64,000 nt of DNA from Nanoarchaeota archaeon SCGC AAA011-G17 (lineage in GTDB: Archaea > Nanobdellota > Nanobdellia > SCGC-AAA011-G17), in contig AQRL01000035.1 of NCBI GenBank assembly GCA_000402515.1, forward strand, positions 36,006 through 100,005, in the 5' to 3' direction. The notes under the pieces are model-generated. The model did not search any database, had not been told where the DNA came from, and worked only from the letters and a program-made list of their open reading frames with translations. Positions within the stretch are counted from its first letter, which is position 1, and every line of letters starts with the position of its first letter. This document shows, piece after piece, positions 5,178 through 23,459 of the stretch. A program made the translations under genes and the position numbers.

Positions 5178-6305
5178 ATGGCAGGCGGGAAATTAAGATT
5201 ATTTGCTTGTAGAAGTGGAAAAGAATTTGCTTCTAAGGTTGCTGAGCATTTGAATAGAAAGTTAGAGGAAGAAAAAAGAATTCTAAATGAATCAACCCAC
5301 AACTGCAATCATGATTGTTACTTTTATTCCGAAGAAAGAGAAAGGCTGGGGAATGTTGTTGTTGAGAGTTATGGGTCTGAGGGCCTTGTGTTTAGAGAGT
5401 TTGCTAATGGTGAATATTATTACAAAATAAAAGACGAAGATAAATACAGTGTGCGGGGGGATAAGGCATATGTTATTCAGTTAACAGAAAAAGATCCTGT
5501 TTTAAGTTTATCAATACATGATAATATTTTTGAATTGATTGTTCTGTTGGATATGCTAAACAGGAGCGGTGTTGAAGAAACAAATCTTATAATACCCATA
5601 TTACCTTATTCAAGACAGGATGCCCAATCTGGAAGGGAGCCTGTTATGACAAGAAGGCTTGCTAAAATCTTCGAGACGAGCTTGATTAACTCCCTTATCA
5701 CAATTGATGTTCATTCCAAATCAGCTATTGATAATGCCTACGATATAAAAAAAGAATTACTATATGCGTCAAAGATAATTATTCCTGCATTGATGGAGGA
5801 GTTAAATGGAGATATTTCAAACCTTGTGCTTGTGTCTACTGATGCTGGGGGAGCCAAAAAAGTAAAATATTATGCAAAAGAAATTGGTGTTGACTCGGTT
5901 ATTTCATTCAAAGAAAGGATAAAAGCAAACCTAGTTGATAGTGTTTCAATAAAGGGAGATATAGAGGGGAAAGATGTTTGTTTTGTTGATGATATAATTG
6001 ATACTGGGGGCACAATAATAAAATCGATTGAAGAAGCTCATCTGAAGGGCGCAAGAAATATTTATATTATATGCACCCATCCCCTATTCAATGGAGATGC
6101 TGCAGAAAAATTTGAAGATTTATATTTAAGGGGGATGTTAAAAAAAGTAATTGGGACTGACACTGTAAATAAAAATAAAGAATTTTTAGAAAAGTATAAA
6201 TGGTTCAAACAGGTGGCTGTTTCTGAATTATTTGCAGACGTAATTTTTTGTTCATTTATGAAACGACCAGTAAGTTCTGTTTACAAGCCTGCAGAAAAAT
6301 TTTAA
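5178..6305 (+). CDS. prs: Ribose-phosphate pyrophosphokinase (PRPP synthetase)-like, with Cys/His-rich insertion
   Basis: N-terminus 'LRLFACRSGKEFASKVAEHL' and PRPP-binding loop 'VCFVDDIIDTGGT'. Extra 'NCNHDCYFYSEE' insert. Confidence 0.65.
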   Translation: MAGGKLRLFACRSGKEFASKVAEHLNRKLEEEKRILNESTHNCNHDCYFYSEERERLGNVVVESYGSEGLVFREFANGEYYYKIKDEDKYSVRGDKAYVIQLTEKDPVLSLSIHDNIFELIVLLDMLNRSGVEETNLIIPILPYSRQDAQSGREPVMTRRLAKIFETSLINSLITIDVHSKSAIDNAYDIKKELLYASKIIIPALMEELNGDISNLVLVSTDAGGAKKVKYYAKEIGVDSVISFKERIKANLVDSVSIKGDIEGKDVCFVDDIIDTGGTIIKSIEEAHLKGARNIYIICTHPLFNGDAAEKFEDLYLRGMLKKVIGTDTVNKNKEFLEKYKWFKQVAVSELFADVIFCSFMKRPVSSVYKPAEKF

Positions 6306-6636
6306 AAATAAAAAAAATAAAAAAAATAAAAAAAGAAAAGTTTATTTTCTCTTTTTTGCTTTCTTTTTTGCCATGTATTTTCACCTCTTTTTTTAATGAT
6401 AAATATTTTTTGTTAAATTATATATTATGTTTTTCTTTATATAGTTTTCTATTTTTTCCGAATATAAAACGAGAAAAAATTTTGGTGGAAATTATTTTTA
6501 ACTTACACAAGATTTAATTATTGCTTAAATTATTTATTATCGTATCTACAATTTATAGTAATTAATATATATTGTTTATGCGATAGGTAAAAAATAAAAT
6601 AAAAAGATTTAAATATTAGACTACCGTCGTAATTTT

Positions 6637-6930
6637 ATGGATTTGCAATCAATTATCAAAATTAAAAACTTGTTAAGGCTTCAAATTTTATCTGAATTAA
6701 AGAGAAAAAAATTGTGTGGTGATGAATTAGCAGATATCATTGGAGAAAATAAAAATGAAAAATTGAGCCCTGGAACAATTTATCCTGCTTTGAAATTTTT
6801 GAAGAAAAAAAAATTAATAATTCATAAACGAATTGGGAGGAAAAAAATTTATTCTCTAACAAAACAAGGGGAAAAAGAATTATTATCAGCAAAAAAAACT
6901 TTTAGAAAAATGTTTGAGAAGTTATTATAA
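6637..6930 (+). CDS. PadR-family transcriptional regulator
   Basis: 'ILSELKRKKLCGDELADIIGENKNEKLSPGTIYPALKFLKKKKLI' matches the PadR wHTH signature. Confidence 0.55.
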   Translation: MDLQSIIKIKNLLRLQILSELKRKKLCGDELADIIGENKNEKLSPGTIYPALKFLKKKKLIIHKRIGRKKIYSLTKQGEKELLSAKKTFRKMFEKLL

Positions 6931-7186
6931 AATAAAAAAATAAAAAAAAGTTAAGTTTATTTCTTTTTGGCTTTTTTCTTGGCTTTTCTTTTTCCACCAC
7001 GTGCCATCTTTGCTTCGCAGACATAATAGGTCTAAGAGAATTAACTCATTAGATTTCCTTTGCCATCGACGTAGTAAAGATAGCCTGGTTTTCTACTAAT
7101 AACATTTTTGGCTATAATTGTTCCCATTTTTCACCTCGTTTTTGTTTATTTTACCGACGATAGAAAAGCGCTTGAAGTATATAAAT

Positions 7187-8323
7187 TTATTGGTGCTCGA
7201 GGAGGGGATTATTAATGTGCCTTTCTATCTCATTGACGCACCTTATTGGGGATTTTTTAATATCTGACTCAAAGAATCTTAAAATTTTCCACCCTTTTTT
7301 ATTTATATACTTATCTTTTATTTTATCTCTATAAATGTTTATTTTTTGTCTTTCTCCTAATTTTTCCTTGTTGTATAAAGAAGGATTTCCATGCCAATAA
7401 TCCCCATCGCATTCGATTACTAATTTTGAAGAGGGTATTGCAAAATCACAAACAAACCTATTATCTATATTGAATTGGCTTATAAAGGATATATCCCCTT
7501 TGGTCATTTCTTCAGATAATTTTAATTCTATTTTTGTGTTAAAAAAGGGAAATTCATTATTACTTATCCTCCTTATTATTGCCTTTCTTGCCCTTACCGA
7601 AGCCTTCTTTCTTAATTCATAGGCTTTCTCTTTACCAAAAAAAATTTCCCAAGATTTCCCAAAATGGGAGTGGTTGGCTCCCTTTAAAGAAGAAATGTAT
7701 TGAAAATTTGGTCTTAAATTTATATCATATTCCTTAAAAAGATTAGATAATATAACTCGGTCATAACCTAATTTTTTCCCTATTTTTTCTAAGCTTAATC
7801 CTTCTATCCAATATAATTGGTTTAATAAATCTCGGAAAGTTTTATTAAATTTGAGTTCTATATTTTTTATTCTTTTTTGTTTTCTAATCCCCCAAATTAT
7901 TTTTAATTTATTGCTTATATTCTTTAAACGGGGGTCTTTTTCCTTTGATTTTCCTTTGGTCCATACAATATCCCATTTAAAACGCTCTTTATTGGCTTCT
8001 GATTTATCCCTTCTTTTTATCTTGTATTTATTAAAATAATATTCTATTGTTGTTTTACCAACATTTAGTTCTTTGGCAATTCTTCTTATAGAAATCTTAT
8101 TTATTAAATATAATTCTTCTAACTTTTTTTTATTAATTTCAAGGGGTAAATGCCTTCTTGCTTTGCAATAAAATTCTTTATCTTTTTTGAGGTTTAATTC
8201 ATAGGCCTTATTATTTATAGAACTTTCAGTTTTTTTAAGTTTATTAGCTAAGTCTTTATTCTTATTATTACAATATTCTTTTTTTAAATAGATAATCTCC
8301 TCTTTTTTCCAATGATTTCTCAT
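7187..8323 (-). CDS. DUF559/Vsr-like (PD-(D/E)xK) endonuclease with N-terminal repeated HTH DNA-binding modules; homing-endonuclease-like
   Basis: C-terminal 'VIECDGDYWHGN...GWKILRFFESD' is the DUF559/Vsr-type nuclease motif. Two sigma-70-region-4-like HTHs ('ISIRRIAKELNVGKTTIEYYF', 'LSLEKIGKKLGYDRVILSNLF'). Confidence 0.55.
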   Translation of the reverse strand: MRNHWKKEEIIYLKKEYCNNKNKDLANKLKKTESSINNKAYELNLKKDKEFYCKARRHLPLEINKKKLEELYLINKISIRRIAKELNVGKTTIEYYFNKYKIKRRDKSEANKERFKWDIVWTKGKSKEKDPRLKNISNKLKIIWGIRKQKRIKNIELKFNKTFRDLLNQLYWIEGLSLEKIGKKLGYDRVILSNLFKEYDINLRPNFQYISSLKGANHSHFGKSWEIFFGKEKAYELRKKASVRARKAIIRRISNNEFPFFNTKIELKLSEEMTKGDISFISQFNIDNRFVCDFAIPSSKLVIECDGDYWHGNPSLYNKEKLGERQKINIYRDKIKDKYINKKGWKILRFFESDIKKSPIRCVNEIERHINNPLLEHQ

Positions 8324-8359
8324 AAAAGATTACTAAGACACGCGCATATAAAAACATTT

Positions 8360-9181
8360 CTATGTGAGTGTATCCAATGGGTATTTTATTTTTTTTAATT
8401 GTTCTTTAGAAACATGAGTATAAATTTGGGTCGTACTAAGCGAGGAATGACCAAGACATTCTTGTATAAACCTTATATCAACACCCGAATCAAGGAGATG
8501 GGTAGCAAAAGAATGACGAAGCTTGTGGGGGTTTACTCTTTTTGCTATACATGCTTTTTCAGCTGATTTCTCCAACAGCTTCTGTATATTACGGGGAGAA
8601 AGAGTATTCTTCTTTCCTGGAAATAAGTATTCATTAGGGGTGTCTAGAGTAGAGATATGATTCTTAAGATCATCTATTATCAGCGGAGAGAGTGTGAAAA
8701 ACCTGTCTTTTGCTCCCTTCCCTCTTCTTACCCACCCTTCTTTCTCTTCCAGACTAAGGTCCTTCACCTTCAGATTAACAAGTTCTGATACTCTCAAACC
8801 AGTAGAATATAACAATTTTATGATCAAGCGTGTCTTGCTTGTTGGTGCTGCATCAATTAATTTCTTGATTTCTTCCCTGGATAAAACTTCTGGTATTTGC
8901 TTAGAAGTTTTAGGCGTCTTAATATTTACAATACCTTTCTTCATCATCTCATCATAAAGAAATTTTAATGCTGATTTTTTCAGAGAAACTGTCTTGCCTG
9001 AAAGTTTTTTTACTGCCATGAGATCTGCCATGTAATCCTTGACATCATCCTCTGTAACTTCTTCCGGCTGCTTTTTTAGTGCTTCCAGGAATAATTTGTT
9101 ATGCCTGACATAGGTGTCTACTGTTCTTTCTGAGAATCCCCTCAATTTTAATTCTGTTTCAAGTTTTTTCAGCATTTCCAT
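8360..9181 (-). CDS. Tyrosine site-specific recombinase (XerA/XerC-like integrase)
   Basis: Catalytic region 'HKLRHSFATHLLDSGVDIRFIQECLGHSSLSTTQIYTHV' (R..H..R..Y). About 270 aa with an N-terminal core-binding domain. Confidence 0.8.
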   Translation of the reverse strand: MEMLKKLETELKLRGFSERTVDTYVRHNKLFLEALKKQPEEVTEDDVKDYMADLMAVKKLSGKTVSLKKSALKFLYDEMMKKGIVNIKTPKTSKQIPEVLSREEIKKLIDAAPTSKTRLIIKLLYSTGLRVSELVNLKVKDLSLEEKEGWVRRGKGAKDRFFTLSPLIIDDLKNHISTLDTPNEYLFPGKKNTLSPRNIQKLLEKSAEKACIAKRVNPHKLRHSFATHLLDSGVDIRFIQECLGHSSLSTTQIYTHVSKEQLKKIKYPLDTLT

Positions 9182-9182
9182 T

Positions 9183-9563
9183 TTATTTCTTAAATATTTT
9201 CCTTTTTCTTTTTAATTCTTCCCATATTTCTCGAGAGATATCCTCTAAATTAAGCCCCAAATCACCCTTGTGCGGTTTAAAAGTTTCTTTAAACAGAGGA
9301 TCTATGCTGTAAACATTTGATAGCTCTTGCTTTGATAATACCTGATGCTCATGCTCACTTAGCACATGAAAACCCCTTTTTAGATCACTTAGATTATATG
9401 CCGAGAAGTATTGGTGAAAGACTGTAATATCTGCCTTAAAGGTAAAATTATCCGGGAAATAATAAAGAATAGTCTTAAGGTCATGAAAACTTACCTTATT
9501 TTTTATTTTTAATGTATCATTCATAGCAATATAAATAGGCAGGAAGTTATAAAGATTACGCAT
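9183..9563 (-). CDS. hypothetical protein (operonic with recombinase)
   Basis: 126-aa ORF. Its stop abuts the start of the XerA-like gene. Confidence 0.3.
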   Translation of the reverse strand: MRNLYNFLPIYIAMNDTLKIKNKVSFHDLKTILYYFPDNFTFKADITVFHQYFSAYNLSDLKRGFHVLSEHEHQVLSKQELSNVYSIDPLFKETFKPHKGDLGLNLEDISREIWEELKRKRKIFKK

Positions 9564-9624
9564 AATTCTGATTAATAAAAAGAATAAAAAAATACAAAAG
9601 AAAAAGTCTAGTTAATCTTTATTT

Positions 9625-9867
9625 TTACAATAATTGTACGTTTTTTGCTTGTTTTCCTCTATCGGTTTCAGTAGCTTCAAAGGATACTTTGTCATTTTCT
9701 TTCAAAAATGCACCTTGCGGCAAGGCTGAGTGATGTACAAAATAATCCTGCCCATCTTCTCCCTGGATAAACCCAAATCCTTTTCTTGAATTAAACCATT
9801 TTACAGTACCTTCCATTCTTGTACCGTCTGTAGTACCTTCTGTACCTTCCTCTTGTTCGTCTGTCAT
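9625..9867 (-). CDS. csp: Cold-shock protein (CspA family, S1-like OB fold)
   Basis: 'GTVKWFNSRKGFGFIQGEDGQDYFVHHSAL' RNP1/RNP2 motifs. Locally GC-richer than its surroundings. Confidence 0.85.
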   Translation of the reverse strand: MTDEQEEGTEGTTDGTRMEGTVKWFNSRKGFGFIQGEDGQDYFVHHSALPQGAFLKENDKVSFEATETDRGKQAKNVQLL

Positions 9868-9946
9868 TTACTTTTCCTCCAATCCTTTAGGATATAATTT
9901 TTGAGAATTTTGTTCTTTTTATAGTTTTGGATTTGAAAATAGATGC

Positions 9947-10513
9947 TTAGAGTGTGTCTAACGGATTCTTTATTCCCTTTAATTGTTTTAATCTATTATC
10001 CTTGAATTTTAAAAAGAGGTCCCAATTCGGTCCTTTTTTGAAGATAAACCATTGTATTTTCTTATTAAAAACGGGTGTTTCCCATGTATTTTCTCCCCTA
10101 GTTATTACCCATACTTCATCGGCTTTTGGTAAATAGTCCAATATTTTATCAATCCTGCATGAACAACATTCTACTACTATAATTCTATCTTCTTTTTCTG
10201 CAAAAATATCCGGTCTAGAACCCAAAAACATTCTCTCAAAATAAATCTCATTATCATTAAATCCTTGCTGGTGTAGAAGAGTTTTAGCTACATATTTCTC
10301 ATCTTTTTGTATTCCTTTGACAAGTAAAAGATCTTCTTTTTCTGGTTTGTTTATGCTTAAAATTTCCCTTTCCTCCAAATCAACCGTTTTATTAAAAATA
10401 AATGATGAGAGAATCATCTCGTCTTTAGGGTTATTATATCTAGAATCGCCTTGATTTAAGATATCATAGACTATCTCCATTGCTTCTTCTTGGGTTTTTG
10501 GGTCTATTCTCAT
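9947..10513 (-). CDS. hypothetical protein, possible PD-(D/E)xK nuclease fold
   Basis: 'GSRPDIFAEKEDRIIVVECCSCRIDK' resembles the D...E.K restriction-endonuclease-like/Hjc core. Weak. Confidence 0.3.
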   Translation of the reverse strand: MRIDPKTQEEAMEIVYDILNQGDSRYNNPKDEMILSSFIFNKTVDLEEREILSINKPEKEDLLLVKGIQKDEKYVAKTLLHQQGFNDNEIYFERMFLGSRPDIFAEKEDRIIVVECCSCRIDKILDYLPKADEVWVITRGENTWETPVFNKKIQWFIFKKGPNWDLFLKFKDNRLKQLKGIKNPLDTL

Positions 10514-11277
10514 TTAAATCCTGCGTTTATTAGCTTATTTTTTGCTTGATCAAATAACTGTTTGTCTATTATTGGTTCATGCTGACCTTCTGACTCCTGT
10601 TTTGCAAATTTGACCTTTCCTAAATAAGTAGTATTTTTGAGTAGTTTTTTTATGCCTGCGGTGGTCATACCATATTTTTTTGCTAGTTTTGTTAGAGATA
10701 TCTCTGAGTTTATAAATTCCTGGAAGATTTGTTTAACTTCTTCTGCTTGTTCTGTATGTGGAACTAGCTTTTTATTTACCATTTTATATCCCTTTGGTGC
10801 TTTTGTAATGAATCCCCCATCTTTTGCTTTTTTTTGCATGCCAAAAGTGGTTCTGTCCCCTATAATATTCCTTTCAAACTCTGCAAAAGCTCCGATTATC
10901 TGGAACATTAACTTTCCGCTTGCACTGGCTGTTTCAATTTTATCTTGCATGGAAATAAAATCAATCCTCCATTCTTTTAGTCTGTCAATAGTTAAAATCA
11001 AATCTTTAAGGCTTCTTGAGAATCTGTCCAGCTTGTAGATAAAAATTGCCTGAAACTTCCTTTCTTCAGCATCCCTAAGTAAATTTATCATCTCTGGGCG
11101 GTTCAGGTCTTTTGCGGATTTTCCCTCATCCCTATAAATTTTGAAAATTTCATAACCCAAGGCTTTTGCATAATTCTGCAGGGAATCTTCCTGGGCATCT
11201 AAAGAAAACCCGTGCTGGGCCTGGTCTTGAGTTGAGACTCTGATGTAAATTGCTGCTAAAGGCTTATTTTGGGTCAT
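10510..11277 (-). CDS. Serine recombinase (resolvase/invertase family)
   Basis: 'AAIYIRVSTQDQ...GFSLDAQ' catalytic Ser motif, 'YKLDRFSRS', C-terminal HTH. The start is probably the internal Met 'MTQNKP'. Confidence 0.8.
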   Translation of the reverse strand: MTQNKPLAAIYIRVSTQDQAQHGFSLDAQEDSLQNYAKALGYEIFKIYRDEGKSAKDLNRPEMINLLRDAEERKFQAIFIYKLDRFSRSLKDLILTIDRLKEWRIDFISMQDKIETASASGKLMFQIIGAFAEFERNIIGDRTTFGMQKKAKDGGFITKAPKGYKMVNKKLVPHTEQAEEVKQIFQEFINSEISLTKLAKKYGMTTAGIKKLLKNTTYLGKVKFAKQESEGQHEPIIDKQLFDQAKNKLINAGFK

Positions 11278-11287
11278 TTTTACTCTT

Positions 11288-11764
11288 TTAATATTTCTTT
11301 GGATATTCTTTAAAATCACTTATAATTTTAGGCATTCCAATCTCATCCACTTGTTTATGAATTTGCATCCAAGAGACCATATCTTTTAATCGTTTTTCTT
11401 TATCCTTGTGCCCGGGAATTTCATTTCTAAATTCTTTTAAGAGGAGGTTATAATTTGGAATTTTAGATAGATTAATTTCTTCTAATTTACATATGTCATA
11501 AAAACTATTTATTTCTAAGATAATATACTGGTTTAATACATCAGAAGGATTAAATCCTGCTTTTATTGAAATCTGATGGGCTTCTAACTTTAGTTCCTTT
11601 TTATGTTCATCTATCAATTCTTTGAAGTCTAATAAACTTAAAATAGTAGCATAAATGTATTTTAAACGAAATTTTGGATCTAGTTCTCCTTTTTTAGATT
11701 CAAGATAGTCCAAAACTTTTTTTGAAGATCCAGATTTTAATATTTCTCTAAATTCTTTATCCAT
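11288..11764 (-). CDS. hypothetical protein
   Basis: 158-aa ORF with coding-like composition. Confidence 0.3.
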   Translation of the reverse strand: MDKEFREILKSGSSKKVLDYLESKKGELDPKFRLKYIYATILSLLDFKELIDEHKKELKLEAHQISIKAGFNPSDVLNQYIILEINSFYDICKLEEINLSKIPNYNLLLKEFRNEIPGHKDKEKRLKDMVSWMQIHKQVDEIGMPKIISDFKEYPKKY

Positions 11765-11933
11765 TTCTCCTCTTTTTTGTGAACTTATGGACTATAATGG
11801 CTCGTCCACAGCAACTTAGGGTGCCCTAAGTATATAAATATTATGGTAAATTTGGGGGTTTAGAAGGCTTAAAATGCTTGTTGGTATTTTTGAATAACTT
11901 TTCGATGATTTTTTATGTTTTTGTATACTTGCT

Positions 11934-12269
11934 TTGATAATGAAAGAAAAAGTGTTTAGGTGCAAACAATGCGGTAAATGCTGCTTGACAACAGAATATG
12001 CTGATATTTCAAAGGAAGATATTGAATTGTGGAAAAAGATTGGCAGGTATGACTTATTTACTCCAGATATGTTGGTGGAATGGGATTATTTTGGTTCATC
12101 TGGATGGTTTAGAAACCAATTGTCTACTAGATGTCCTTTTTTAAGAAAAAAGAAGAATGAAGATACCTATTATTGTAAAATCCATAAAATTAAACCACTA
12201 TTTTGTAGGTCGTTTCCAAAGGACAAAGAACATGCTAAGAACTTTTGTGGTTGTGTTGGTTATCTGTGA
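11934..12269 (+). CDS. YkgJ/UPF0153-family Zn/Fe-S cluster protein (CxxCxxCC)
   Basis: 'CKQCGKCC' and downstream Cys residues. Confidence 0.5.
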   Translation: MIMKEKVFRCKQCGKCCLTTEYADISKEDIELWKKIGRYDLFTPDMLVEWDYFGSSGWFRNQLSTRCPFLRKKKNEDTYYCKIHKIKPLFCRSFPKDKEHAKNFCGCVGYL

Positions 12270-12566
12270 TTAAATTATTATCAAAAGATTTTATTGTTTG
12301 GGATGTGGTTTCTTGCTATACAAACGTTCTATAATCCACATATATATATTATGATTTTATCTGTTTCTTATTCTTCTAGTATGCCCTCTGACCCTTATTT
12401 CTCTATATCTTGGTCTTCTTGTTAAAAACCATAATATAAAAATTATGGCCAGGACCACCAACAAAAATGTTCCAAATCCCATAATAACACCTCTTACGGC
12501 ATATAGATATTTTGATATTTAAACTTTTCTAGAATATTTGTTGTTCAAATAAATGATTTTGTGTTT

Positions 12567-13334
12567 TTAAGATACTGGAATCAAACAAAGAACATCTACT
12601 ATTGGTCCTAATGTTCCACTACTACTTATAAATATAGTAGCTATACAAGCAACATTCCATAAATCTCCTATTTCGCTCTTTGGTTCAGCATATTTAACAC
12701 TACACTCAGTTCCTACTCTTTCTGCTTTTTCACATAAATCCAAAAAACCCTTTTCTTGTTCTACTCTTGAAGCTCCTTCACTTGTTTTAGCATCTATTAT
12801 TTCAATTTTTTTAGGATAAGATTGATGAATCGTGTTATCCCCCTTAACTATCAAAATATCCGGTTCTTTTAAGAAATAGGGGTCTATTTTTTTGTTTAAA
12901 TAATACTGGGTATTTTTTCCACCAATAAGAGTAAAATCTTCTATTTCAACATATCTATCACCAAAGTTTCCAGCTCTTGTTAATTCATCAATTGAGCTAA
13001 AAGAACGTTGTGCTTTCTGTGCATAATATTTCTGAACTGCTTTTTCCCAATCTGCTCCTTTCAGTCCATTATATTTTATTTTTTCTGTTGATGTTTTAAT
13101 TTCTTTCTTAGCCAAATCATCGGCTTCTTTAAAGGTTTTAGTTTCTTGTCTTGATATTTTTTGTGTATCATCAATGTTCTTTTTGACTACATTTCCAGTA
13201 ATCTTAGCCTCTTTAGATGATTTTACTCCCCCCTTGAATATATCACTTAACCAACCCCAACCAGCATTAACTGGTAGGGATATTACTAAAAATAACAAAA
13301 AACCCAAAAGAATAAATCTAATCCCCTTATTCAT
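12567..13334 (-). CDS. Secreted protein with N-terminal signal peptide and Cys-containing C-terminus
   Basis: 'MNKGIRFILLGFLLFLVISLPVNA' signal peptide. Confidence 0.4.
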   Translation of the reverse strand: MNKGIRFILLGFLLFLVISLPVNAGWGWLSDIFKGGVKSSKEAKITGNVVKKNIDDTQKISRQETKTFKEADDLAKKEIKTSTEKIKYNGLKGADWEKAVQKYYAQKAQRSFSSIDELTRAGNFGDRYVEIEDFTLIGGKNTQYYLNKKIDPYFLKEPDILIVKGDNTIHQSYPKKIEIIDAKTSEGASRVEQEKGFLDLCEKAERVGTECSVKYAEPKSEIGDLWNVACIATIFISSSGTLGPIVDVLCLIPVS

Positions 13335-13383
13335 AAATATTTAATATTTTTATTATTTTTAAGGGTTTTGGTGTTTAGAAATA

Positions 13384-14196
13384 TTATCCCCCATTGGTTC
13401 TAAAAAATCCTATAATTCTTTTAGCAAGTTCCACCATCCTTATTTCCTTCTTTTCTGGGTCGTCTGATGTATAAAATGAAACTTTTCCATTAATACTAAT
13501 CTTAAAACTAATGCCTCCCTGTTCTTTTCCTTTTACATAAAGAGGCTTTGAAATCGGGAGGAAACCCCTATCAATTAATCTTGTTTTTTTTAAATTTTTA
13601 TCTTTTTTATGTTCAGTACTAAATCCTGCAGTCTCCCCATACTTTCCATAATCCTCTATTATTTGTTTCATATATTTTGAGGGAAAATGGGGGTTGGGTT
13701 TTATTTTTCCAGGGTCTGTTATTTTTAATATAGAGACTGATTCTGCTTTGGTATAGAATTCCTTTAATAACTTATAATCAAATTCCTTAATCTCTTCTAT
13801 TTTTATTTTACCTGGAAATTTAGAAGATCCCAATGCATCTATTATCCTATTTTTTATTTCCATAAAACTACCTCTTCCAAATCCAAATCCCTCATAAGCA
13901 ATATATCCATCAGAAAAGATAATAACCATCTTTGATTCTGAATCTGTGTAGTTATCTTGTTGAAATCCACTATTTTCCTGATTAAGAAATTGACTTCTAG
14001 AGGGTAAATCTTTATAATAATTAAATGTTAAAAAGTCATTATCTTGTTTAAAATTAAGAAACCCCTTCCTGTTCCTCTTATAAGACCCCCTCATACCAAA
14101 GCTTTTTAAATCAGAGTAAAGAATTTTTATTAAATCTTCCTTTTTTGGAGGGGAACTTATGACCAATCTAGCAAAGCTAAGAGTCACGGATGCCAT
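13384..14196 (-). CDS. hypothetical protein
   Basis: 270-aa ORF. Confidence 0.3.
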   Translation of the reverse strand: MASVTLSFARLVISSPPKKEDLIKILYSDLKSFGMRGSYKRNRKGFLNFKQDNDFLTFNYYKDLPSRSQFLNQENSGFQQDNYTDSESKMVIIFSDGYIAYEGFGFGRGSFMEIKNRIIDALGSSKFPGKIKIEEIKEFDYKLLKEFYTKAESVSILKITDPGKIKPNPHFPSKYMKQIIEDYGKYGETAGFSTEHKKDKNLKKTRLIDRGFLPISKPLYVKGKEQGGISFKISINGKVSFYTSDDPEKKEIRMVELAKRIIGFFRTNGG

Positions 14197-14229
14197 AAAA
14201 TTAATATATCAACAAAGTATATAATCTTT

Positions 14230-14682
14230 ATGGTAAAAAAGAATCTTTTTTTGGAGAATATTGATTTATTTTTTTCAGGGCTCCTATTGATCTTTTTGAT
14301 ATTCTCAAATTACAGGGGGTGGGTTACTATTTTTTTTATCCCAGAACACATTTTTTTTCAAGGATACTTAATAGTATTTGGAGTTGTTCTTGCTGTATTA
14401 ACTATTTTTTTATCTTTGGATGAGAAACTATTTTATGTTTTAGACAAAAGAAATTTTAGAAAATTAACATTCAATATGTTTAAATTTCCCTTAATTGCTT
14501 CTGTTTTGGGATTCCTTCTAACCTTACTAAATCAGGGGGAGAAAAGTATCTGGTTTTTTTTCATAAATGTATCTATCCTTTTATATGTTATTTTATCTTG
14601 TTTTGAATTGTTTAAATTTATTTTTAACATCACTTATGGGATAAAAATAAAAAAAGCGGAAAAAGAATTAGAAAAAAATTAA
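14230..14682 (+). CDS. integral membrane protein (4 predicted TM helices)
   Basis: Hydrophobic helices throughout. Confidence 0.35.
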   Translation: MVKKNLFLENIDLFFSGLLLIFLIFSNYRGWVTIFFIPEHIFFQGYLIVFGVVLAVLTIFLSLDEKLFYVLDKRNFRKLTFNMFKFPLIASVLGFLLTLLNQGEKSIWFFFINVSILLYVILSCFELFKFIFNITYGIKIKKAEKELEKN

Positions 14683-14760
14683 AAAATCCTGAATAGTGGA
14701 ACTTTAGATAAGCTTAAAAGTTTTAAGATTTTATTAAAATTAAGGTGATGGGAGATAAAA

Positions 14761-15099
14761 ATGACTGAAAGAGGAAATAGAAAATATATCAAAAATAAAG
14801 TTTATGAAGATGGGAGATTACCTTCTATCTTGAATGATATAGAATTAGGAGACCTTGTTGAAATTGTTAGTGATGATGATAACAAAGAAGTTCAATTCCC
14901 CCCACTTAAAATGAGTGGATATGTCATAACCTTAGGTTCTATGCAAAGAGAAGAAAATGGTCCGCATTACTTGTGTATTGCACTGAGTGTATTTCACCCT
15001 TCAATGATAGAAGAGATAGGCAGGACACAAAAAGAATGGATGCCAAAGAATCCCCCTATTCCTGCAAAAGATATAGACAAGTATAGAGTTTTATCTTAA
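14761..15099 (+). CDS. hypothetical protein
   Basis: 112-aa ORF. Confidence 0.3.
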   Translation: MTERGNRKYIKNKVYEDGRLPSILNDIELGDLVEIVSDDDNKEVQFPPLKMSGYVITLGSMQREENGPHYLCIALSVFHPSMIEEIGRTQKEWMPKNPPIPAKDIDKYRVLS

Positions 15100-15147
15100 T
15101 TTTTTCTTTCTTTTTTCTCTGTCTAAAACTTTTAAGCAATGTTTAAA

Positions 15148-15675
15148 TTATTTATTTATTTTTTTATAGCCAACATAGATTAGAAGTATTAATGCAACCC
15201 CTGAAATTATGAATCTCAAGTAATCATCCATTGCTGACCAATATCTTATTACACCAACTAATATTGATAGTATCCCCCCAAATAAGAAGCCGTTAGCAAC
15301 TGCATCTACTGATATTACTGTAAGGCCTAAAATCAATGTTATAATGCCCAGGATAGTCAAAATTACAAAAACATTCCGGTCATATACCTCTTTTACTGCA
15401 GTGTATTCCTTATTGCATTTGTAGGTTACATCACAATAACCCATTATTACTGCACCGGTTGCTGTTGCTGTTTTTGGAACTTCTGGCCCTGAATAATGCC
15501 ATAAACCACCTGCATCTGTGCATTCTTTTTCTGTTTGAATATTTTTAGAATAAAGTGTTTCCGGACAGAATTGAGTATATTCTGGTGATTTGTAGAAGGT
15601 AAAAATCCCATAATTAAAAAAAACATTTAATAAAATTACAATCCCTATTGCCAAAGCTATTTGTTTGAATTTCAT
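15148..15675 (-). CDS. membrane protein with signal anchor and Cys-rich ectodomain
   Basis: N-terminal TM, 'CPETLYSKNIQTEKECTDAGG...CDVTYKCNKEY', C-terminal TM helices. Confidence 0.35.
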   Translation of the reverse strand: MKFKQIALAIGIVILLNVFFNYGIFTFYKSPEYTQFCPETLYSKNIQTEKECTDAGGLWHYSGPEVPKTATATGAVIMGYCDVTYKCNKEYTAVKEVYDRNVFVILTILGIITLILGLTVISVDAVANGFLFGGILSILVGVIRYWSAMDDYLRFIISGVALILLIYVGYKKINK

Positions 15676-15684
15676 TTTTTCCTC

Positions 15685-16272
15685 TTATTTTATTGATAAT
15701 AATCTTTTTTCTTTTTCTGTTAATCTTTTGGCTAACTTATGACCCTTATCTGTTAAATTTAAAATAATTTCCCTTCCTTTTCTACTCTTTTTTAATAGCC
15801 CCCATGTCGATAAAATATCTGTATAGTTTGAAACTAAAGATTTAATGTTTATATATTTTGTCCTTGGATAGAGTGTTTCTGCTAGCGCCCTCATTGGGAT
15901 CCATTCCCCACTTGATTCATTAAGAAGATTTACCATTCTCATCAAAAAAACCCCCTGTTGGTCAGTTATTAGGGTTTCAATATCTATTTCTTCATTTTTT
16001 AAAATCTCTTTTCTGGGTTCTTTGTAAGCTTCTTCTCTTTCATCTTCTTTTACTAAATAGCTTTCAAGCTTAGCTAATTTCATTTCTATATCTAATAATC
16101 TTCTATCAAAATTTTTAGAATTGTTTGTGTGGTGAGTATGGACCATATTTATCCGTTCATTTAATTTGCCCATATCACTTTTTATATTAATAAAGGAGTT
16201 CTGGACGGAATTATGAATATGATCTATTTTTTTATGTACGTCCTCTTTTTTTTTGAATAACCACCAAACCAT
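15685..16272 (-). CDS. Coiled-coil + C-terminal winged-helix DNA-binding protein (paralog of 16872..17486)
   Basis: Shares N-terminal 'V.NSFI..K' and coiled-coil with the downstream paralog. C-terminal wHTH 'IPMRALAETLYPRT...LTDKGHKLAKRL'. Confidence 0.45.
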   Translation of the reverse strand: MVWWLFKKKEDVHKKIDHIHNSVQNSFINIKSDMGKLNERINMVHTHHTNNSKNFDRRLLDIEMKLAKLESYLVKEDEREEAYKEPRKEILKNEEIDIETLITDQQGVFLMRMVNLLNESSGEWIPMRALAETLYPRTKYINIKSLVSNYTDILSTWGLLKKSRKGREIILNLTDKGHKLAKRLTEKEKRLLSIK

Positions 16273-16319
16273 TATATATATTAAAAAGTTTTTGTTTAAA
16301 TAGTTTTGGGTGTTCTCTT

Positions 16320-16660
16320 ATGAACTATATGAACGGTTCAGCAACGGTTCAGTGAATCCTGTGAACGTTCAGTGAACGTTCAGTGAACAGTAATTATAAT
16401 AAATTACATGTAAGTACTTACGTAAGTTACGTAAGATGTGTAAGTTACGGTTTATTTTTATATTTCACCGACGGTTTAAGTTGAAGTGTAAGTTACGTAA
16501 GTTACAGATCATGAAAGTGTAAGTGAACATTTGGTGACGTCATAGGAGTATTTTAGTGACGTCAGCGACGCTTTATTTTTAGTGAATATGAAGGAGAAAA
16601 ACGATAATTTATAGGCATCTGTGATGGTTAATCAGCGACGAGGAATAGATTAGTTCGCAC
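16320..16660. repeat. Iteron/palindrome-rich non-coding region (origin-like)
   Basis: Tandem 'AACGGTTCAG' x2. 'GTGAACGTTCA' x3 with a perfect palindrome TGAACGTTCA. 'GTAAGTTACG' family x5. Palindromic 'GTGACGTCA' x2. 'CAGCGACG' x2. Confidence 0.6.
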
Positions 16661-16764
16661 AATAGGGGTGTTTTGAGGAGATATATTAGGTTAATGTGAC
16701 TATATAGAGGAGAGAAAGAGTGAATAAATACGCAAAAAACAAGGGAATTAAGAGGGTTCTATTC

Positions 16765-16812
16765 ATGAATAGGATGTGCACAGACCAAATTAGATGTGTT
16801 TAGGATGTGCAT
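16765..16812. repeat. 46-bp direct repeat, copy 1 (TGAATAGGATGTGCACAGAC...GTGTTTAGGATGTGC)
   Basis: Near-identical to copy 2 at 17497..17541. The pair brackets the wHTH gene 16872..17486. Confidence 0.6.
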
Positions 16813-16871
16813 AAGTGAATAAGTGCATAGAATACAGGTTAAAATTACGTATAAAAATAGAGAAATGATAG

Positions 16872-17486
16872 CTAAAATAGTCTTTTCTGTCCTGGATCGG
16901 ACCCATAGTAAGCGGTGATTATTCTTTCCTTGTAGTTGAGGTTCCTAAAATCATCGAGTATCGAGAGAAAAACAGTCTTATTGTTGTGTTTTTTCTTAAT
17001 TATGGGAGCACCCTTTTGTATCAGAGAGCTTATGTAGGTTCTGATGCATCCTTCGGATAATCCCATCTTTTTTGAGACATCGATATAGGTTACATTGCTT
17101 TTCTGATCCTCCTCTAGCTGGTAGATTGTCAAAAAAGCCAGTAATTCCTGTTTTGTAAGGGTTTTAAGCAGGCTTTCAATGTTCTCAACTACTGTCTTTA
17201 ATCCTGATTTGTCATGTGAATAACTGTTGAATGAATGAATGAATGAATGAATAGACCCTATTTTTTCCTCTGGAACTATTGTGTTTTCTTCACTATTTGG
17301 CTTTGATTTTGTTATTTCCCCCCTTAAATCCTCTATTTTCTTTAGGAGGGTGTCTATTTGTTTGTTTTGCAGAGAAATAAGGTGTCTATTGTCTTCTATT
17401 TCTTTTTCAAGCTTGTCTGCGTGCTTTTTAGCCTCAATAAAGGAGTTTTTTACATTTTCTTTGAAAAAGGGGTCAATTTCTACCAT
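16872..17486 (-). CDS. Coiled-coil + winged-helix DNA-binding protein (iteron-binding/Rep-like candidate) containing a coding tetranucleotide SSR
   Basis: N-terminal coiled-coil. C-terminal wHTH 'TYIDVSKKMGLSEGCIRTYISSLIQKG'. Paralog of 15685..16272. Contains (TGAA)6. Confidence 0.45.
   Translation of the reverse strand: MVEIDPFFKENVKNSFIEAKKHADKLEKEIEDNRHLISLQNKQIDTLLKKIEDLRGEITKSKPNSEENTIVPEEKIGSIHSFIHSFNSYSHDKSGLKTVVENIESLLKTLTKQELLAFLTIYQLEEDQKSNVTYIDVSKKMGLSEGCIRTYISSLIQKGAPIIKKKHNNKTVFLSILDDFRNLNYKERIITAYYGSDPGQKRLF
17228..17251. repeat. (TGAA)6 tetranucleotide microsatellite inside a coding sequence
   Basis: Six perfect TGAA units, encoding 'IHSFIHSF' on the minus strand. Confidence 0.8.
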
Positions 17487-17496
17487 TTTTATCTGA

Positions 17497-17541
17497 ATAG
17501 GATGTGCACAGACAAATTTATATGTGTTTAGGATGTGCTTA
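17497..17541. repeat. 46-bp direct repeat, copy 2
   Basis: Matches 16765..16812 with a few mismatches. Confidence 0.6.
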
Positions 17542-17675
17542 ATATATGTTTAAGTGAATAATTGAATGAATAAATTGAATTCTTCAGAATTTGGGCATTA
17601 GAAGGCTATAAAACCATAAATTTTATAAATAAGCTAACTTTGTTTTTAAAATATAAACTAGTCGAGGTGAATAAT

Positions 17676-17843
17676 ATGACAGAATTATTGGTTGTAAGAA
17701 GCAAAATAAAAGAGTGCACAGATTTAAATGTTGCTGGAAACTTTGCAGATGCCTTAAGTGAAAAAGTAAGAGTTATGATTATGGATGCTGAGAAGAGAGC
17801 AAGAGGAAACGGAAGAAAAACATTAAAACCAGAAGATTTGTAA
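17676..17843 (+). CDS. small histone-fold-like protein (DUF1931-like)
   Basis: 'ELLVVRSKIKE...NVAGNFADALSEKVRVMIMDAEKRARGNGRKTLKPEDL' resembles small histone-fold DUF1931 proteins. This is a tentative call. Confidence 0.3.
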   Translation: MTELLVVRSKIKECTDLNVAGNFADALSEKVRVMIMDAEKRARGNGRKTLKPEDL

Positions 17844-17862
17844 ATTTTTTCTATTTCTTTTT

Positions 17863-18300
17863 TTATCCAATATACCCTTTAGCCTTATCTACATGGGGAT
17901 TTAGTGTTGGCATTGGCAAGTGAGGAGGCAAATTAACATCCTGAGAAAGATTCAATGCCTTAATATTACATTTTATCAAGGCTGTATTGAGCAATTGCGC
18001 CTTTAATGTTAATTCTATTTTTTTATCCTTTTTCCATCCATTTGCTATCTCCTTTATTTTAGCAGGAGTATCCAGATATAATAAGTGACCTTGTAATATT
18101 GTTGAACCGACGTCGGGATCATAGAACACACTATATTCAAAGGAAAGTTTTAGAACGTCTTGTTTTTTATCCTGACTTAAAGAAATTTCGTCTATAGATA
18201 TATCCTTAACTTCGATATTATTTCTAACTTTAATTCCCTTTTCTATTTTTCCTGTTCTCTCAACAGAAAACTTATCAAAATTAAAACCTACAACTGGCAT
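17863..18300 (-). CDS. hypothetical protein
   Basis: 145-aa ORF. Confidence 0.3.
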   Translation of the reverse strand: MPVVGFNFDKFSVERTGKIEKGIKVRNNIEVKDISIDEISLSQDKKQDVLKLSFEYSVFYDPDVGSTILQGHLLYLDTPAKIKEIANGWKKDKKIELTLKAQLLNTALIKCNIKALNLSQDVNLPPHLPMPTLNPHVDKAKGYIG

Positions 18301-20084: not shown

Positions 20085-20363
20085 TTGCATTTTAAGACCT
20101 TGATGAGCCTAATCTCTGATAATAAAAAAGAGAAGATAAGAATGGATATATTAAGATTTCTTTATGATGAATATCCTAAAATGCTTTATACCTATGAGGT
20201 TGCGGATGCACTTACAAGGAATGATGAGTTTATTTTGGGTTTATTAATAGAACTGAGAGATAAAAAAGCAGTACATTGGATTGAAGAGACTAAAGGAGGA
20301 AAGATTAAGAGGAAATGGGGAATGAATGAACTGATATTCAAAACCTATAAGGAATTACTTTAA
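20085..20363 (+). CDS. small winged-helix protein
   Basis: 92-aa ORF, '[40 protein letters not shown]'. Confidence 0.35.
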
Positions 20364-21710
20364 TAACTTTTTAAGAACCAATTCGTGCCCTTTCCAGACC
20401 AGAGCTTCTTTTAGAACATCCTGGATTGTTGATGCGGGAATAATTTTTATCTTTTCCTGATTTTCTTTGGATAATTTAACATCTTGAATATTTGATTGGG
20501 GGATTATAACCCTTGATATACCTGCTTCAATTGCTGCTTCTATTTTTGGAGTAACGCCCCCTACTGCCAATACCTCCCCCCTTATTGATAATGAACCAGT
20601 CATTGCTGTGTCTTGTCTTATTGGAATTCCTTTGAATGCTGAAATGATTGCTGTTGCTACTGCTATTGAAGCTGAATCTCCTTCTACCCCCTCTGAGGCG
20701 GTTTGCAAAAACTGAATAAAAATATCATGTTTAACATCCTCGCCAAAATGTTTTAAAATAATTGCTGAAACATTCTTTACTGCTTCCTTTGCAATTATCC
20801 CAAGCTTTCCTGTTGCTACAAATTCTGATTTTTTTCCGCCGGGGGTTACTTCTGATTCTATTGGCAAGACAATTCCGGAGAATGCAAAACCATCCCCTAT
20901 AACTGCCAGACCATTAACTCTCCCTACTCTTTGTCCTTTTGTTATTATTATATCATATTTTTTCTTGTCTTCTATATACCTGTCTGCCATTTGCTGCTCT
21001 AGTGTTCTTGCGAGTTTTTTTGCTTCAATTATCTGTTTTCTATCTACTACATTTAATCCCTGTTCTTTTGCTAAATCCCCTGCTGCTCTTATTAATCCGC
21101 CAAGCTCTCTTAATCTTAATGTTAATTTCTCGGATGTATTTGCCCTTCTTTTTGCCTCATTTATTATTTCCTGAACAGCTTCATGAGTAAATGGGGGTAT
21201 TTTTTTGTCCTTTGCTATTTCCTGTGCTACAAACAAGGTCAATTTATTCCTGTTTTCCTGCGTATCATCTATCTCTGAATTCATATAAATTTCATAACCA
21301 TAACCCCTTATTCTTGATCTTAATGCAGGATGCATTCTTTTTATTGTCTCAACGTTTCCTGCTGCTACTAAAATAAAGTCTGTTGGAACTGGTTCTGACA
21401 TTGTTGTTGAGCCAGATGAACGTTCGGATTGCCCCTTAATCGGATATTTTTTTTCCTGCATTGCTGTTAAAAGTTCTTGTTGTGATTCTGTTGTTAGTGT
21501 TGCAACCTCATCCATAAATAAAACTCCCCCACTTGACTTGTGAATCATCCCTGGTATTAGTCTCTCATAGGCAGGAGTACCCAGACCCCCTGAATTCTTC
21601 ACTAGAATTCCATTTACTATTAGATTGCCTGACTTTGTAGTTAAATTATACAAATAACCCCTGTAAGACACTTTTTCTATTTTCTTTATTTTTTCTGTTT
21701 TTAGTTCCAT
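20355..21710 (-). CDS. lonB: LonB protease, C-terminal part: intein C-segment (39 aa) + AAA+ remainder + Ser-Lys protease domain
   Basis: Begins '[39 protein letters not shown]' (intein blocks F/G), then '[29 protein letters not shown]' (LonB sensor region). Catalytic 'GDSASIA' and a downstream Lys. Confidence 0.85.
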
Positions 21711-22115
21711 TTTTCCAATGATTGTTGTGTTAGGATGAAATTTAATATATTATTATTTTACAAAAACTTCTTCCCCTTTTTTTAGTTTTGAGGCTTCTGT
21801 ATACTGCTTTTTTCCTTTGTTATTAACTGCTATTTTGTGCTCTGGTGTAACTAACAACGTTTTCCCTGACTCTGTTGTTATTTTATATAGATAGGGTTTG
21901 TCTGATTTGTATTTATTAACTGAAAGTACTTCTACAGGCTGGATTTTCCCATTCTTTTCTGCTAATATGTATAATTCATCTTTTTTAAGATATACTGCTA
22001 TGTATCCCTTTTTCTTAATTAATTCTTTTTCGTGCTTTTTTAGTATTTTATTTACTTCTGTTGAAATATTTACTTTTTTTCCATTTTTTATGAGTTTATT
22101 GTTACCACTAAATGA
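21594..22115 (-). other. Mini-intein in LonB interrupted by tandem in-frame TAA TAA stops (N-segment 120 aa, C-segment 39 aa)
   Basis: Block A 'SFSGNNKLIKNGKKVNI' and block B 'LLVTPEHKIAV' lie in the upstream ORF. Blocks F/G '[21 protein letters not shown]|S' lie in the downstream ORF. Both are in the same frame, separated by TAATAA + 13 codons + ATG. Confidence 0.75.
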
Positions 22116-23023: not shown

Positions 23024-23099
23024 GACTTGTGTAGAATGTTAGGTTATTTATATACTTTTCTTTTATTTAATGCAGATTTTTGAGTTTATGTTGGATATA

Positions 23100-23459
23100 C
23101 CCACACACCTATATTTCGTATGGAGTAATGGAGATTATTATTTCTTATGAATAACTTTTATTTATTATTTATTAATTAGTTTCTTTTTTAGTTAATAAGC
23201 AAATGGTTAATTTCGATGATTTTGGGGTATGATAAAATGATAGTAGAAGGCTTGTATTAACTTATCTCTATTTCCCATTATAAATTTTTCTATGTTATAT
23301 TATATTATATACTATTATATATATTTTGTATTATACTTTTTAGAGTGTTATAACTAAAAAGTTCTATGAGAAACATAGGTGTTCTTGATGAGTGATTATA
23401 ACTGAAAAGATGGCTAAGTTTCAGCAATACAATCTCCATAGGCAATGATGGTGTGGGTG
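23100..23459. promoter_or_regulatory. Candidate chromosomal replication origin (oriC): inverted ORB-like repeats flanking an AT-rich unwinding region, directly upstream of orc1/cdc6
   Basis: 'CCCACACACC...TATGGAGTAATGGAGATT' at 23100..23136. Its inverted partner 'AATCTCCATAGGCAATGATGGTGTGGGTG' at 23431..23459. About 295 bp of (TA)n-rich DNA in between. Direct repeats 'T(G)ATTATAACT(A/G)AAAAG' x2 at about 23351 and 23391. Confidence 0.5.

Follow-up and report, generated by a model that had tools for sequence, protein, structure and literature searches.

The block at positions 7187-17600 of a 64-kb stretch of DNA from Nanoarchaeota archaeon SCGC AAA011-G17 (contig AQRL01000035.1; the whole stretch of 64,000 nucleotides is called the window below) carries the tyrosine recombinase XerA, a short serine recombinase, a nuclease, a cold-shock gene and a repeat-rich gap between two winged-helix genes, and an earlier note had read it as one integrated mobile element. 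We report that the block is probably a mosaic of conserved chromosomal core and variable DNA in this low-GC DPANN archaeon, not a single integrated element. Both of its ends, XerA with its partner gene on one side and the winged-helix pair with its repeats on the other, are chromosomal core, because they are syntenic in 42-56 of 64 related loci and XerA is placed likewise in 42 of the 48 loci that are informative. Alignment to related genomes, which the earlier note had proposed as a way to find the vacant insertion site, yielded no empty site for the block as a whole; only 9942-15095 and 7203-8359 vary. Two parts of the one-element proposal stand, namely the rapid turnover of the first of these intervals and the discrete insertion of a DUF559 nuclease gene in the second, while its outline falls on syntenic ends and native composition.

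Conserved neighbourhood and native composition

A profile of the winged-helix protein of 204 amino acids (aa), named wHTH204 for its winged helix-turn-helix (HTH), was scanned against one genome per species and found 61 loci, all of them in metagenome-assembled genomes (MAGs) of Woesearchaeota or Nanoarchaeota; together with three metagenomic contigs these make up the 64 loci over which neighbours were counted (individual loci are cited by handles such as L003). Near wHTH204 lie a 145-aa gene (56 loci), the paralogue wHTH195, directly beside it (50), XerA (45), ArgRS (45), PRC (42), Lon (37) and Cdc6 (33), and further out, in 7-20 of the 64, PadR, a 90-aa winged-helix gene, SerRS, TRASH and Metallophos. 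The 48 informative loci comprise 42 with XerA only, four with the serine recombinase only and two with neither, and in 42 of them the distance from the winged-helix pair downstream to XerA is 1.3-7 kb; the same frame of genes is seen in L003 and L005. The core neighbourhood, situated 6-15 kb from a Cdc6-linked candidate origin of the origin recognition box (ORB) type, consists of the 145-aa gene, the winged-helix pair and then a site-specific recombinase, usually XerA, with PadR, SerRS and others beyond the recombinase slot.

The tetranucleotide composition and GC content of the block are the same as those of its flanks. GC is about 31% across the entire window, and tetranucleotide z-scores stay between -0.8 and +0.7 standard deviations of the window mean across 7-18 kb; mildly atypical codon usage is confined to XerA and wHTH204, both core genes. 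The earlier note had singled out a CspA-type cold-shock gene as foreign on account of GC-rich codons. The cold-shock domain is indeed there, but the foreign look is not: the gene's GC of 0.383 is due to codon positions 1 and 2, GC at third codon positions stands at 0.259 (window mean 0.262), and codon usage has a z-score of +0.6. Its closest representative, 76% identical and beginning MEGTVKWFN, belongs to another MAG, where its neighbours are housekeeping genes such as POR and SecDF, and has a GC offset from its own contig equal to that of the window gene. The protein is 98.8% identical in the close relative L197, within a conserved flank. The cold-shock gene is native, and its start is probably at Met18, near 9816.

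Searches for features of an integrated element gave little. ARAGORN found no tRNA gene in the window, and repeat searches over 6300-17900 returned A-rich low-complexity repeats and no att-like direct repeats, in agreement with what the earlier note had said of the edges. Similar A-rich blocks (AAAATAAAAAAATAAAAAAAAGTTAAGTTTATTT) stand at three gene ends, 6305-6365, 6929-6980 and 9580-9631; rather than att sites, these are probably spacers of the bidirectional terminator or promoter type. Rfam had no match in the whole window at the gathering threshold, nor in 16100-18000 at E-values up to 1, and PADLOC reported no defence system. The viral or plasmid relatives that the earlier note had suggested looking for did not appear among the island ORFs (open reading frames): phage and plasmid records gave no tblastn match to any of eight island proteins, a viral-contig scan with the serine recombinase gave no relative, and among the block proteins only the recombinase and the nuclease had matches in PHROGs.

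The first of the variable parts is the nuclease gene at the left end of the block. Its assignment to the DUF559/Vsr fold is borne out by a C-terminal Pfam DUF559 domain (residues 276-370), which scores 32.2 bits against a gathering cut-off of 20.6; the Vsr subfamily model gives 30.7 bits, far under its cut-off of 97.9. Homology to L003 runs from PadR through a small ORF to window position 7202, the base after the L003 XerA stop; the DUF559 gene therefore fills a clean indel, a 1.16-kb insertion relative to L003 at about 7203-8359, between the XerA stop and the next gene. Homologues lie beside XerA in L064, L031 and L038 only, in two arrangements (4 of about 48 loci with the window included), and the N-terminal HTH modules of the protein match phage homing-endonuclease types in PHROG and PADLOC models. 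The single-gene intergenic indel, the sporadic distribution and the HTH modules akin to those of phage HNH and homing endonucleases recall free-standing homing endonuclease genes, although the nuclease domain here is DUF559/Vsr-fold and not LAGLIDADG, GIY-YIG or HNH. The gene's behaviour fits that of a homing-type selfish gene.

Next to the insertion lies a small ORF that normally follows XerA or the serine recombinase directly. The block of DNA that holds it is about 80% identical in L030, L009, L023, L032, L033 and L018 and ends in the ribosome-binding site GGAGGTGA; a conserved stretch of 90 nucleotides (nt) within it, 7053-7143, was considered as a non-coding RNA or a dif site and rejected as such, being a small coding ORF with a ribosome-binding site. 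In the window the ORF, which reads MGKIIAKNVVTRKPGYLYYVDGKGN, is cut to 28 aa by a stop codon, and a 40-aa ORF follows in another frame (6902-7024); a frameshift or decay could account for the shortened form.

The second variable part is a hypervariable chromosomal island, for which the breakpoints were set by comparison with L197, a 7.7-kb groundwater contig from a close relative. L197 is 93.6% identical in DNA over window positions 8760-9941 and 92.7% over 15096-15691; inside the island its genes are unrelated or just 48-59% identical, and the L197 contig holds no counterpart of the serine recombinase operon, the CxxCxxCC gene or the 255-aa cargo gene. One breakpoint falls just beyond the 188-aa gene, 6 nt after its stop, and the other at the convergent gene ends after the membrane-protein gene, with no repeats at either in the comparison with L197. 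Because both lie in plain intergenic DNA without repeats, the island would turn over by homologous exchange through its conserved flanks. The more distant L003 has MazG and MazE/ParE genes and unassigned ORFs in the same slot. None of the island genes recurs in the 64 related loci except the serine recombinase and the 188-aa gene, which, like the DUF559 gene, have homologues in 3-4 of them; the cold-shock gene, the 158-, 255-, 270-, 150- and 112-aa ORFs and the CxxCxxCC gene are found in none of the 64. The translations show a signal-peptide protein and membrane proteins, as the earlier note had claimed. The 255-aa protein with its signal or anchor sequence had no family, phage or plasmid matches, and the 270-aa protein had none in family libraries or in a metagenome contig scan.

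With its near-identical flanks, abrupt transitions, native composition and lack of integrase-defined ends, the island resembles the hypervariable or replacement islands of free-living microbes. It differs from them in measuring only 5 kb, in its place near the origin with a regulator pair to one side and XerA to the other, and in that one variant of it is a recombinase operon.

The winged-helix pair and a candidate origin

The two genes that bracket the repeat-rich gap are paralogous, as had been proposed, at the level of profiles only: hhalign of profiles built from about 55 orthologues each gives a probability of 97.2% (E 4e-11, 155 columns), and BLASTP gives E 0.11. wHTH204 has 105 homologues, and its AlphaFold2 (AF2) model consists of a long helix (residues 6-61), a disordered segment (64-88) and a C-terminal winged helix for which the best fold matches are MarR/ArsR regulators. 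Against L197 (window 15685-16272, L197 27-581) wHTH195 is 39% identical, with neighbouring genes and flanks at 93-97%, and by this comparison its divergence looks like allelic replacement of a DNA-binding protein.

The gap between the two genes had been described as an origin-like iteron region. A repeat-rich gap of about 600 bp is present, but its repeats are not iterons, being ACGT palindromes of 8-10 bp and not direct repeats of 17-22 bp. Seven ACGT-centred 8-bp palindromes occupy 16363-16564 (TGACGTCA twice, TTACGTAA three times, GAACGTTC twice), and the TTACGTAA and (T)GAACGTTC(A) units form tandem arrays with one-base spacing and a period of 9 or 11. Read along the gene strand, the gap begins with a 49-nt box of the CACATCCTA motif (16766-16814), followed by a pyrimidine-rich spacer and then the palindromes. 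L003 has the same layout with TCACGTGA units, the layout recurs with other units in further genomes, and CACATCCTA-type boxes stand upstream of its wHTH204 orthologue too. Seven of the ACGT palindromes fall within 400 nt, as against two in the other 63.6 kb of the window; over 58 loci they number 3.50 per kb within the 400 nt that precede wHTH195 genes and 0.079 per kb elsewhere, a 44-fold difference.

The winged-helix protein and the palindromic sites appear to co-vary between genomes, and the palindromes and CACATCCTA boxes are most likely operators through which two winged-helix dimers would control their own genes. Clustered short repeats between or next to winged-helix genes are also what iteron plasmid origins display. 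The window differs from these in that its repeats are 8-10-bp palindromes of several types rather than 17-22-bp direct iterons, in that its proteins have one MarR/ArsR-like winged helix and a coiled coil, and in that the locus is chromosomal and conserved; an iteron or captured plasmid origin was rejected on repeat type, protein fold and chromosomal conservation.

Repeats of related types also occur within the coding DNA of both genes. Where wHTH195 is inverted (L063, L064, L065, L010 and L022), arrays of GGACACGTGTCC lie inside coding DNA and encode a TRVQTGVQ linker repeat. In wHTH204 the DNA that codes for the disordered, conserved GVYSFIHSFN linker is likewise of the TTCATTCA or CACATCCTA-like kind and similar to the flanking boxes.

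To the right of the block, Pfam matches mark ArgRS, Lon and a PRC-barrel gene and then cdc6 with the two polD genes (DP1, DP2). In the 486-bp gap upstream of cdc6, inverted repeats of 27 nt resembling ORBs (consensus CTCCATAnGAAAnATAGGTGTGnGGGT) lie, with a third copy, around an AT-rich (TATAT)n core, and GC skew changes sign near 23 kb. Because of these ORB-type repeats beside cdc6 and the change of sign in the skew, the chromosomal origin most likely lies at 23.1-23.5 kb, 6 kb from the region that the earlier note had called origin-like.

Two recombinases, their candidate sites and rival readings

The window XerA scores 263.2 bits against the cut-off of 220 of the NCBIfam equivalog NF040815, and the catalytic pattern R..K..HxxR..H..Y can be read from its translation (TGLRVSEL, GKGAKDR, HKLRHSF, LGHSS, IYTHV). 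It is 97% aa-identical in L197. The equivalog score and the 1-nt gap to the gene before it confirm the description of a XerA-like recombinase coupled to another gene; a homologue of that 126-aa ORF lies directly upstream of XerA in L003 and L004, and it is 86% identical in L197. XerA would be the housekeeping chromosome-dimer resolvase of the conserved core.

Nine of 40 relatives (L008, L013, L021, L046, L048, L049, L052, L055 and L058) have a dif-like 11-6-11 inverted repeat, nnTTCGYATAA-N6-TTATRCGAAnn, less than 1 kb upstream of xerA, at distances of 46-814 nt, for example CCTTCGTATAA-TGTACC-TTATACGAAGG and CACGCATATAA-TGTGTG-TTATATGCGTG; among the upstream regions of nine control genes it occurs in 1 of 301. 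The 64-kb window has no match to the relatives' consensus at up to 3 mismatches. Thermococcales genomes show no constant distance between xerA and oriC, and their dif site is in the terminus region, remote from xerA (Cortez et al. 2010, PMC2958812). The window's 273-aa protein resembles that archaeal XerA/dif system (PMC2958812) in passing the XerA equivalog and in its catalytic residues; it differs in that xerA here keeps to a place 8-15 kb from the cdc6 origin region throughout an order, and in that the dif-like sites of the relatives lie within 1 kb upstream of xerA (9/40), with none in the window.

The second recombinase belongs to the serine family (motif YIRVSTQDQ in the translation), and the probable start of its ORF is 11277 rather than the GTG at 11319. 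The 4-nt overlap with the 188-aa ORF bears out the coupling that had been claimed for these two genes. Its best match in the PDB is the catalytic domain of TP901-1 integrase (E 1.5e-31) and it also matches PHROG integrase family 95 (E 2.6e-76); it spans only positions 85-355 of the 651-position integrase profile, and its profile matches cover the first half of integrase and Ccr models only, a zinc-ribbon and coiled-coil domain not being present. The family to which it belongs has more than 1470 homologues at E < 1e-20, including more than 120 clusters at 75-84% identity and about 250 aa (close members 248-275 aa) on DPANN contigs of up to 692 kb. Because this large family is conserved at about 250 aa throughout, the 255-aa protein is, by comparison with its relatives, not a truncated integrase. 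It shares the catalytic domain and PF07508 with large serine recombinases such as TP901-1 and CcrB, but it ends at 255 aa without the zinc-ribbon/coiled-coil part, and no attL/attR pair or phage genes accompany it. Judged by these features, it does not look like the integrase of an element. In L069 (12433-12852) and also in L097, L115 and L122, a second ORF of about 139 aa stands 1.3-2 kb downstream of a full-length serine recombinase; it resembles the Recombinase domain only, and is 43-47% identical to the corresponding residues of the window protein.

Upstream of the recombinase lies a conserved promoter/site block in which the TATA box TTTATATA is followed by an 18-bp palindrome with a 2-bp centre, ACTTAGGG-CA-CCCTAAGT (11814-11831), and, after about 24 nt, by the half-site CCATAAGTT; across the loci an extra half-site CCCTAAGTT lies about 33 nt downstream. 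The block abuts the start codon in L067, L069, L071 and L051; in this genome only, a 158-aa ORF lies between block and recombinase, and this ORF has no family matches and no homologue in related loci. The palindrome occurs once in the 64-kb window, with 0 expected by chance, and once per serine-recombinase locus. A metagenome scan found about 21 low-GC contigs with TATA box and palindrome, each with a recombinase homologue starting 50-120 nt downstream. An integron-like array of cassettes seeded by the site was also considered and rejected (13 CCCTAAG half-sites found, 18 expected).

This arrangement invites comparison with resolvase/res modules (Tn3/gamma-delta) and with the plasmid multimer-resolution systems Sin and beta. 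As in these, the window gene stands directly behind a presumed site that overlaps its own promoter, and this site, present once per replicon region, consists of a short inverted repeat around a 2-bp centre plus an extra half-site. The differences are that the window protein is of the large-serine-recombinase lineage (catalytic plus Recombinase domains), without a C-terminal HTH, and that the module is chromosomal, archaeal and origin-proximal, the likeness being one of site layout. By analogy with resolvase and res, the recombinase would bind the palindrome, repress its own promoter, and recombine two copies of the palindrome on one molecule, an act of multimer resolution.

The 188-aa protein encoded behind the serine recombinase had been called PD-(D/E)xK-like. 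The motif is present (E93, D102, E115, K123), while the fold matches to nucleases are weak (Foldseek E >= 0.08). The AF2 model has a mean predicted local distance difference test (pLDDT) score of 92.5, and its weak Foldseek matches, at E 0.08-0.5, are mostly to PD-(D/E)xK nucleases (HincII, Hjc, cap-snatching endonucleases). An alignment of the family, which has about 47 clusters, shows QGDSRY, E93, D102 (RPD) and E115-CCSC to be invariant and K123 to be displaced. The gene follows a serine recombinase by a 4-nt overlap in the window, L071 and L072, is coupled likewise to a tyrosine recombinase in L073 and L074, and lies directly beside XerA in L025, L047 and L045. Its C-terminus, ELKKIKSPLDxL, is the tail that follows the catalytic tyrosine of these XerA proteins: an LKxIKxPLDTL peptide ends both proteins (window 9947-9990 and 8360-8400), is conserved in the 188-aa family and in XerA orthologues, and occurs in 0 of 1222 other proteins of the related loci. 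Since the C-terminal helix of XerA controls recombination (PMC3646895), the 188-aa tail could be a mimic of the XerA tail that docks on XerA, a lead drawn from sequence similarity.

Elsewhere too the serine recombinase keeps company with the core genes. In L067, L069, L097, L115 and others it comes after Cdc6, PRC, the 145-aa gene and the winged-helix pair and has no XerA within 10 kb, as is the case in most other genomes where the family takes up this slot, and in four Woesearchaeota loci it stands in place of XerA. L071 and L161 have both recombinases, as the window does; most relatives hold one or the other. Together with the dif-like sites upstream of xerA, this suggests that the slot accepts two kinds of recombinase-plus-site cassette, XerA with a dif-like site and the serine recombinase with its palindrome. 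A further step, which we put forward tentatively and regard as rather doubtful, is that the cassettes are interchangeable, that the serine recombinase is a domesticated dimer resolvase which has replaced XerA in many Pacearchaeota, and that the 188-aa protein docks on or modulates XerA; this genome would then be, just as tentatively, among the few that carry both recombinases.

Several observations weigh against the mosaic of core and variable DNA, or against parts of it. The serine recombinase is about 80% identical to Pacearchaeota copies, far above the replication proteins, and it is absent from this locus in the two closest relatives, L003 and L197; a horizontal arrival of its operon is possible, and the island genes could be the decayed remains of an element with eroded ends. 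In genomes that have the serine recombinase alone, the absence of XerA applies to the 10 kb around the locus, which is the extent of the check. No convincing 11-(6-8)-11 inverted repeat was found in the 64-kb window, which leaves XerA without a dif-like site nearby. The roles proposed for the ACGT palindromes and the recombinase site are drawn from position, symmetry and analogy, and the origin is a candidate called from sequence pattern and gene context.

Some of these points recur in the proposal that the island, or the operon at 9947-11850 alone, is an integrated or decayed element brought by a serine recombinase that targets the origin-proximal slot. We consider this unlikely. The island is absent or replaced in the closest relatives, the catalytic domain of the recombinase is nearest to those of phage large serine integrases, the L067 recombinase borders a cluster of restriction, Fic and PD-(D/E)xK genes, and copies of the recombinase at about 80% identity occur in genomes where Cdc6 is 58% identical (in the comparison with L069, 81% for the recombinase, 58% for Cdc6 and 38-46% for PolD). 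However, the site occurs as a single copy in 64 kb and is a perfect palindrome, not a hybrid attL/attR; the protein has no zinc-ribbon/coiled-coil domain, the part by which large serine integrases recognise att; no cargo is common to different recombinase loci; the breakpoints against L197 are without repeats; and no viral or plasmid relatives of the island or recombinase proteins were found. The co-transcribed 188-aa gene has moreover diverged, being only 53% identical to its L071 counterpart, and because of this the similarity of the recombinases favours strong constraint on its sequence over recent transfer of the operon.

Quite improbable, in our estimate, is the idea that the winged-helix pair and its arrays form a replication or segregation module, whether a second, captured origin served by a WhiP-like initiator or a centromere-like site to which a coiled-coil DNA-binding protein binds. 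The module is conserved and origin-proximal, its palindrome arrays are spaced by one helical turn, and the hypervariable wHTH195 allele is what would be expected of a specificity or incompatibility determinant; some genomes have the arrays within the gene of the protein itself, comparable to the parS sites found inside parB genes of some bacteria. Yet no partition ATPase or helicase-loader gene is linked to the pair, a complete ORB-type origin already stands beside cdc6, the fold is a generic MarR/ArsR winged helix, and the palindromes, 20-300 nt upstream of the start codon, are where operators are expected.

That the whole block 7187-17600 is a provirus, an integrative plasmid or an element resembling an integrative and conjugative element, with integrase, nuclease, cargo, iteron origin and Rep-like proteins, is the least credible reading by far: two recombinases, a nuclease and many ORFans on one strand, the repeat-rich gap between paralogous DNA-binding genes and a weak DnaD_N match in the wHTH204 protein speak for it, but the ends are core in about 60 species, always by ArgRS, Lon and Cdc6, XerA passes a housekeeping equivalog model, composition is uniform, att repeats, tRNA and viral or plasmid homologues are lacking, and the winged-helix fold resembles MarR/ArsR regulators, not Rep proteins.

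Other features of the window and implications

The coordinates of the features are collected in Table 1. Outside the block, Lon (20355-22730) is present as two ORFs, one of 325 aa with Mg_chelatase and weak intein matches and one of 451 aa with the LonB lid and Lon_C; in L003 it is a single protein of 621 aa. An intein remnant, a split of the gene or an error of assembly could explain the two-ORF form. The PolD subunit DP2 (26357-31330, 1657 aa) contains an intein with a LAGLIDADG domain, and a free-standing LAGLIDADG/HTH protein of 379 aa is encoded at the left end of the window (53-1192). Homing-type elements are common in this genome.

Table 1. Positions of the features discussed, in window coordinates unless a related locus is named
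Feature	Position	Strand	Basis or context
Small conserved ORF, 28 aa here and ~50 aa in relatives	7041-7127	-	
Free-standing DUF559/HTH nuclease gene	7187-8323	-	Pfam DUF559
XerA tyrosine recombinase, 273 aa	8360-9181	-	NCBIfam NF040815; Pfam Phage_integrase and SAM_4
126-aa ORF	9183-9563	-	ORF coordinates; 1 nt upstream of XerA
Cold-shock-domain protein	9625-9867	-	Pfam CSD PF00313, 75 bits against a cut-off of 27
Hypervariable chromosomal island, 5.15 kb	9942-15095		Between membrane-protein gene and cold-shock gene
188-aa protein	9947-10513	-	4-nt overlap with serine recombinase
Short serine recombinase, 255 aa	10510-11277	-	Pfam PF00239 Resolvase, 141 bits; PF07508 Recombinase, 35 bits
158-aa ORF between site block and recombinase	11288-11764	-	ORF coordinates
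Conserved promoter/site block	11782-11839	-	Alignment of window, L051, L067, L069 and L071
CxxCxxCC (YkgJ-type) small metal-binding protein, cargo	11940-12269	+	Pfam PF03692, 40 bits
255-aa protein with N-terminal signal or anchor sequence, cargo	12567-13334	-	Translation
270-aa protein, cargo	13384-14196	-	48.5% identical to L197 counterpart
150-aa multi-pass membrane protein, cargo	14230-14682	+	Translation; 59% identical in L197
112-aa ORF, cargo	14761-15099	+	Translation
175-aa membrane protein, right flank of island	15148-15675	-	77% identical in L003, 95% in L197
wHTH195, coiled-coil and winged-helix protein	15685-16272	-	Beside wHTH204 in 50/64 loci
Intergenic region rich in putative operators	16273-16871		Sequence and repeat analysis
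wHTH204, coiled-coil and winged-helix protein	16872-17486	-	Single-copy, conserved in Woesearchaeota and Pacearchaeota
Linker-coding repeat DNA in wHTH204 genes	17215-17260; L003 10225-10290		
Second 49-nt CACATCCTA box, 92% identical	17494-17542		Directly upstream of wHTH204 start codon
Candidate chromosomal replication origin	23099-23460		Directly upstream of cdc6-DP1-DP2

For the annotation of DPANN genomes, these results mean that XerA, the cold-shock gene and the winged-helix pair are not to be masked as prophage or island DNA. They provide a conserved origin-proximal neighbourhood, together with a likely origin, for a poorly studied group of archaea, and a compact hypervariable island delimited to the base. 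They also bring to light a family of short serine recombinases, very large and slow to evolve, in which each gene is tied to a conserved palindrome, and both the recombinase and its site are short enough for direct testing. To our knowledge, all known chromosome-dimer resolution systems use tyrosine recombinases; if it is true that a serine recombinase resolves dimers in some archaea, this would be a new solution to a universal problem.

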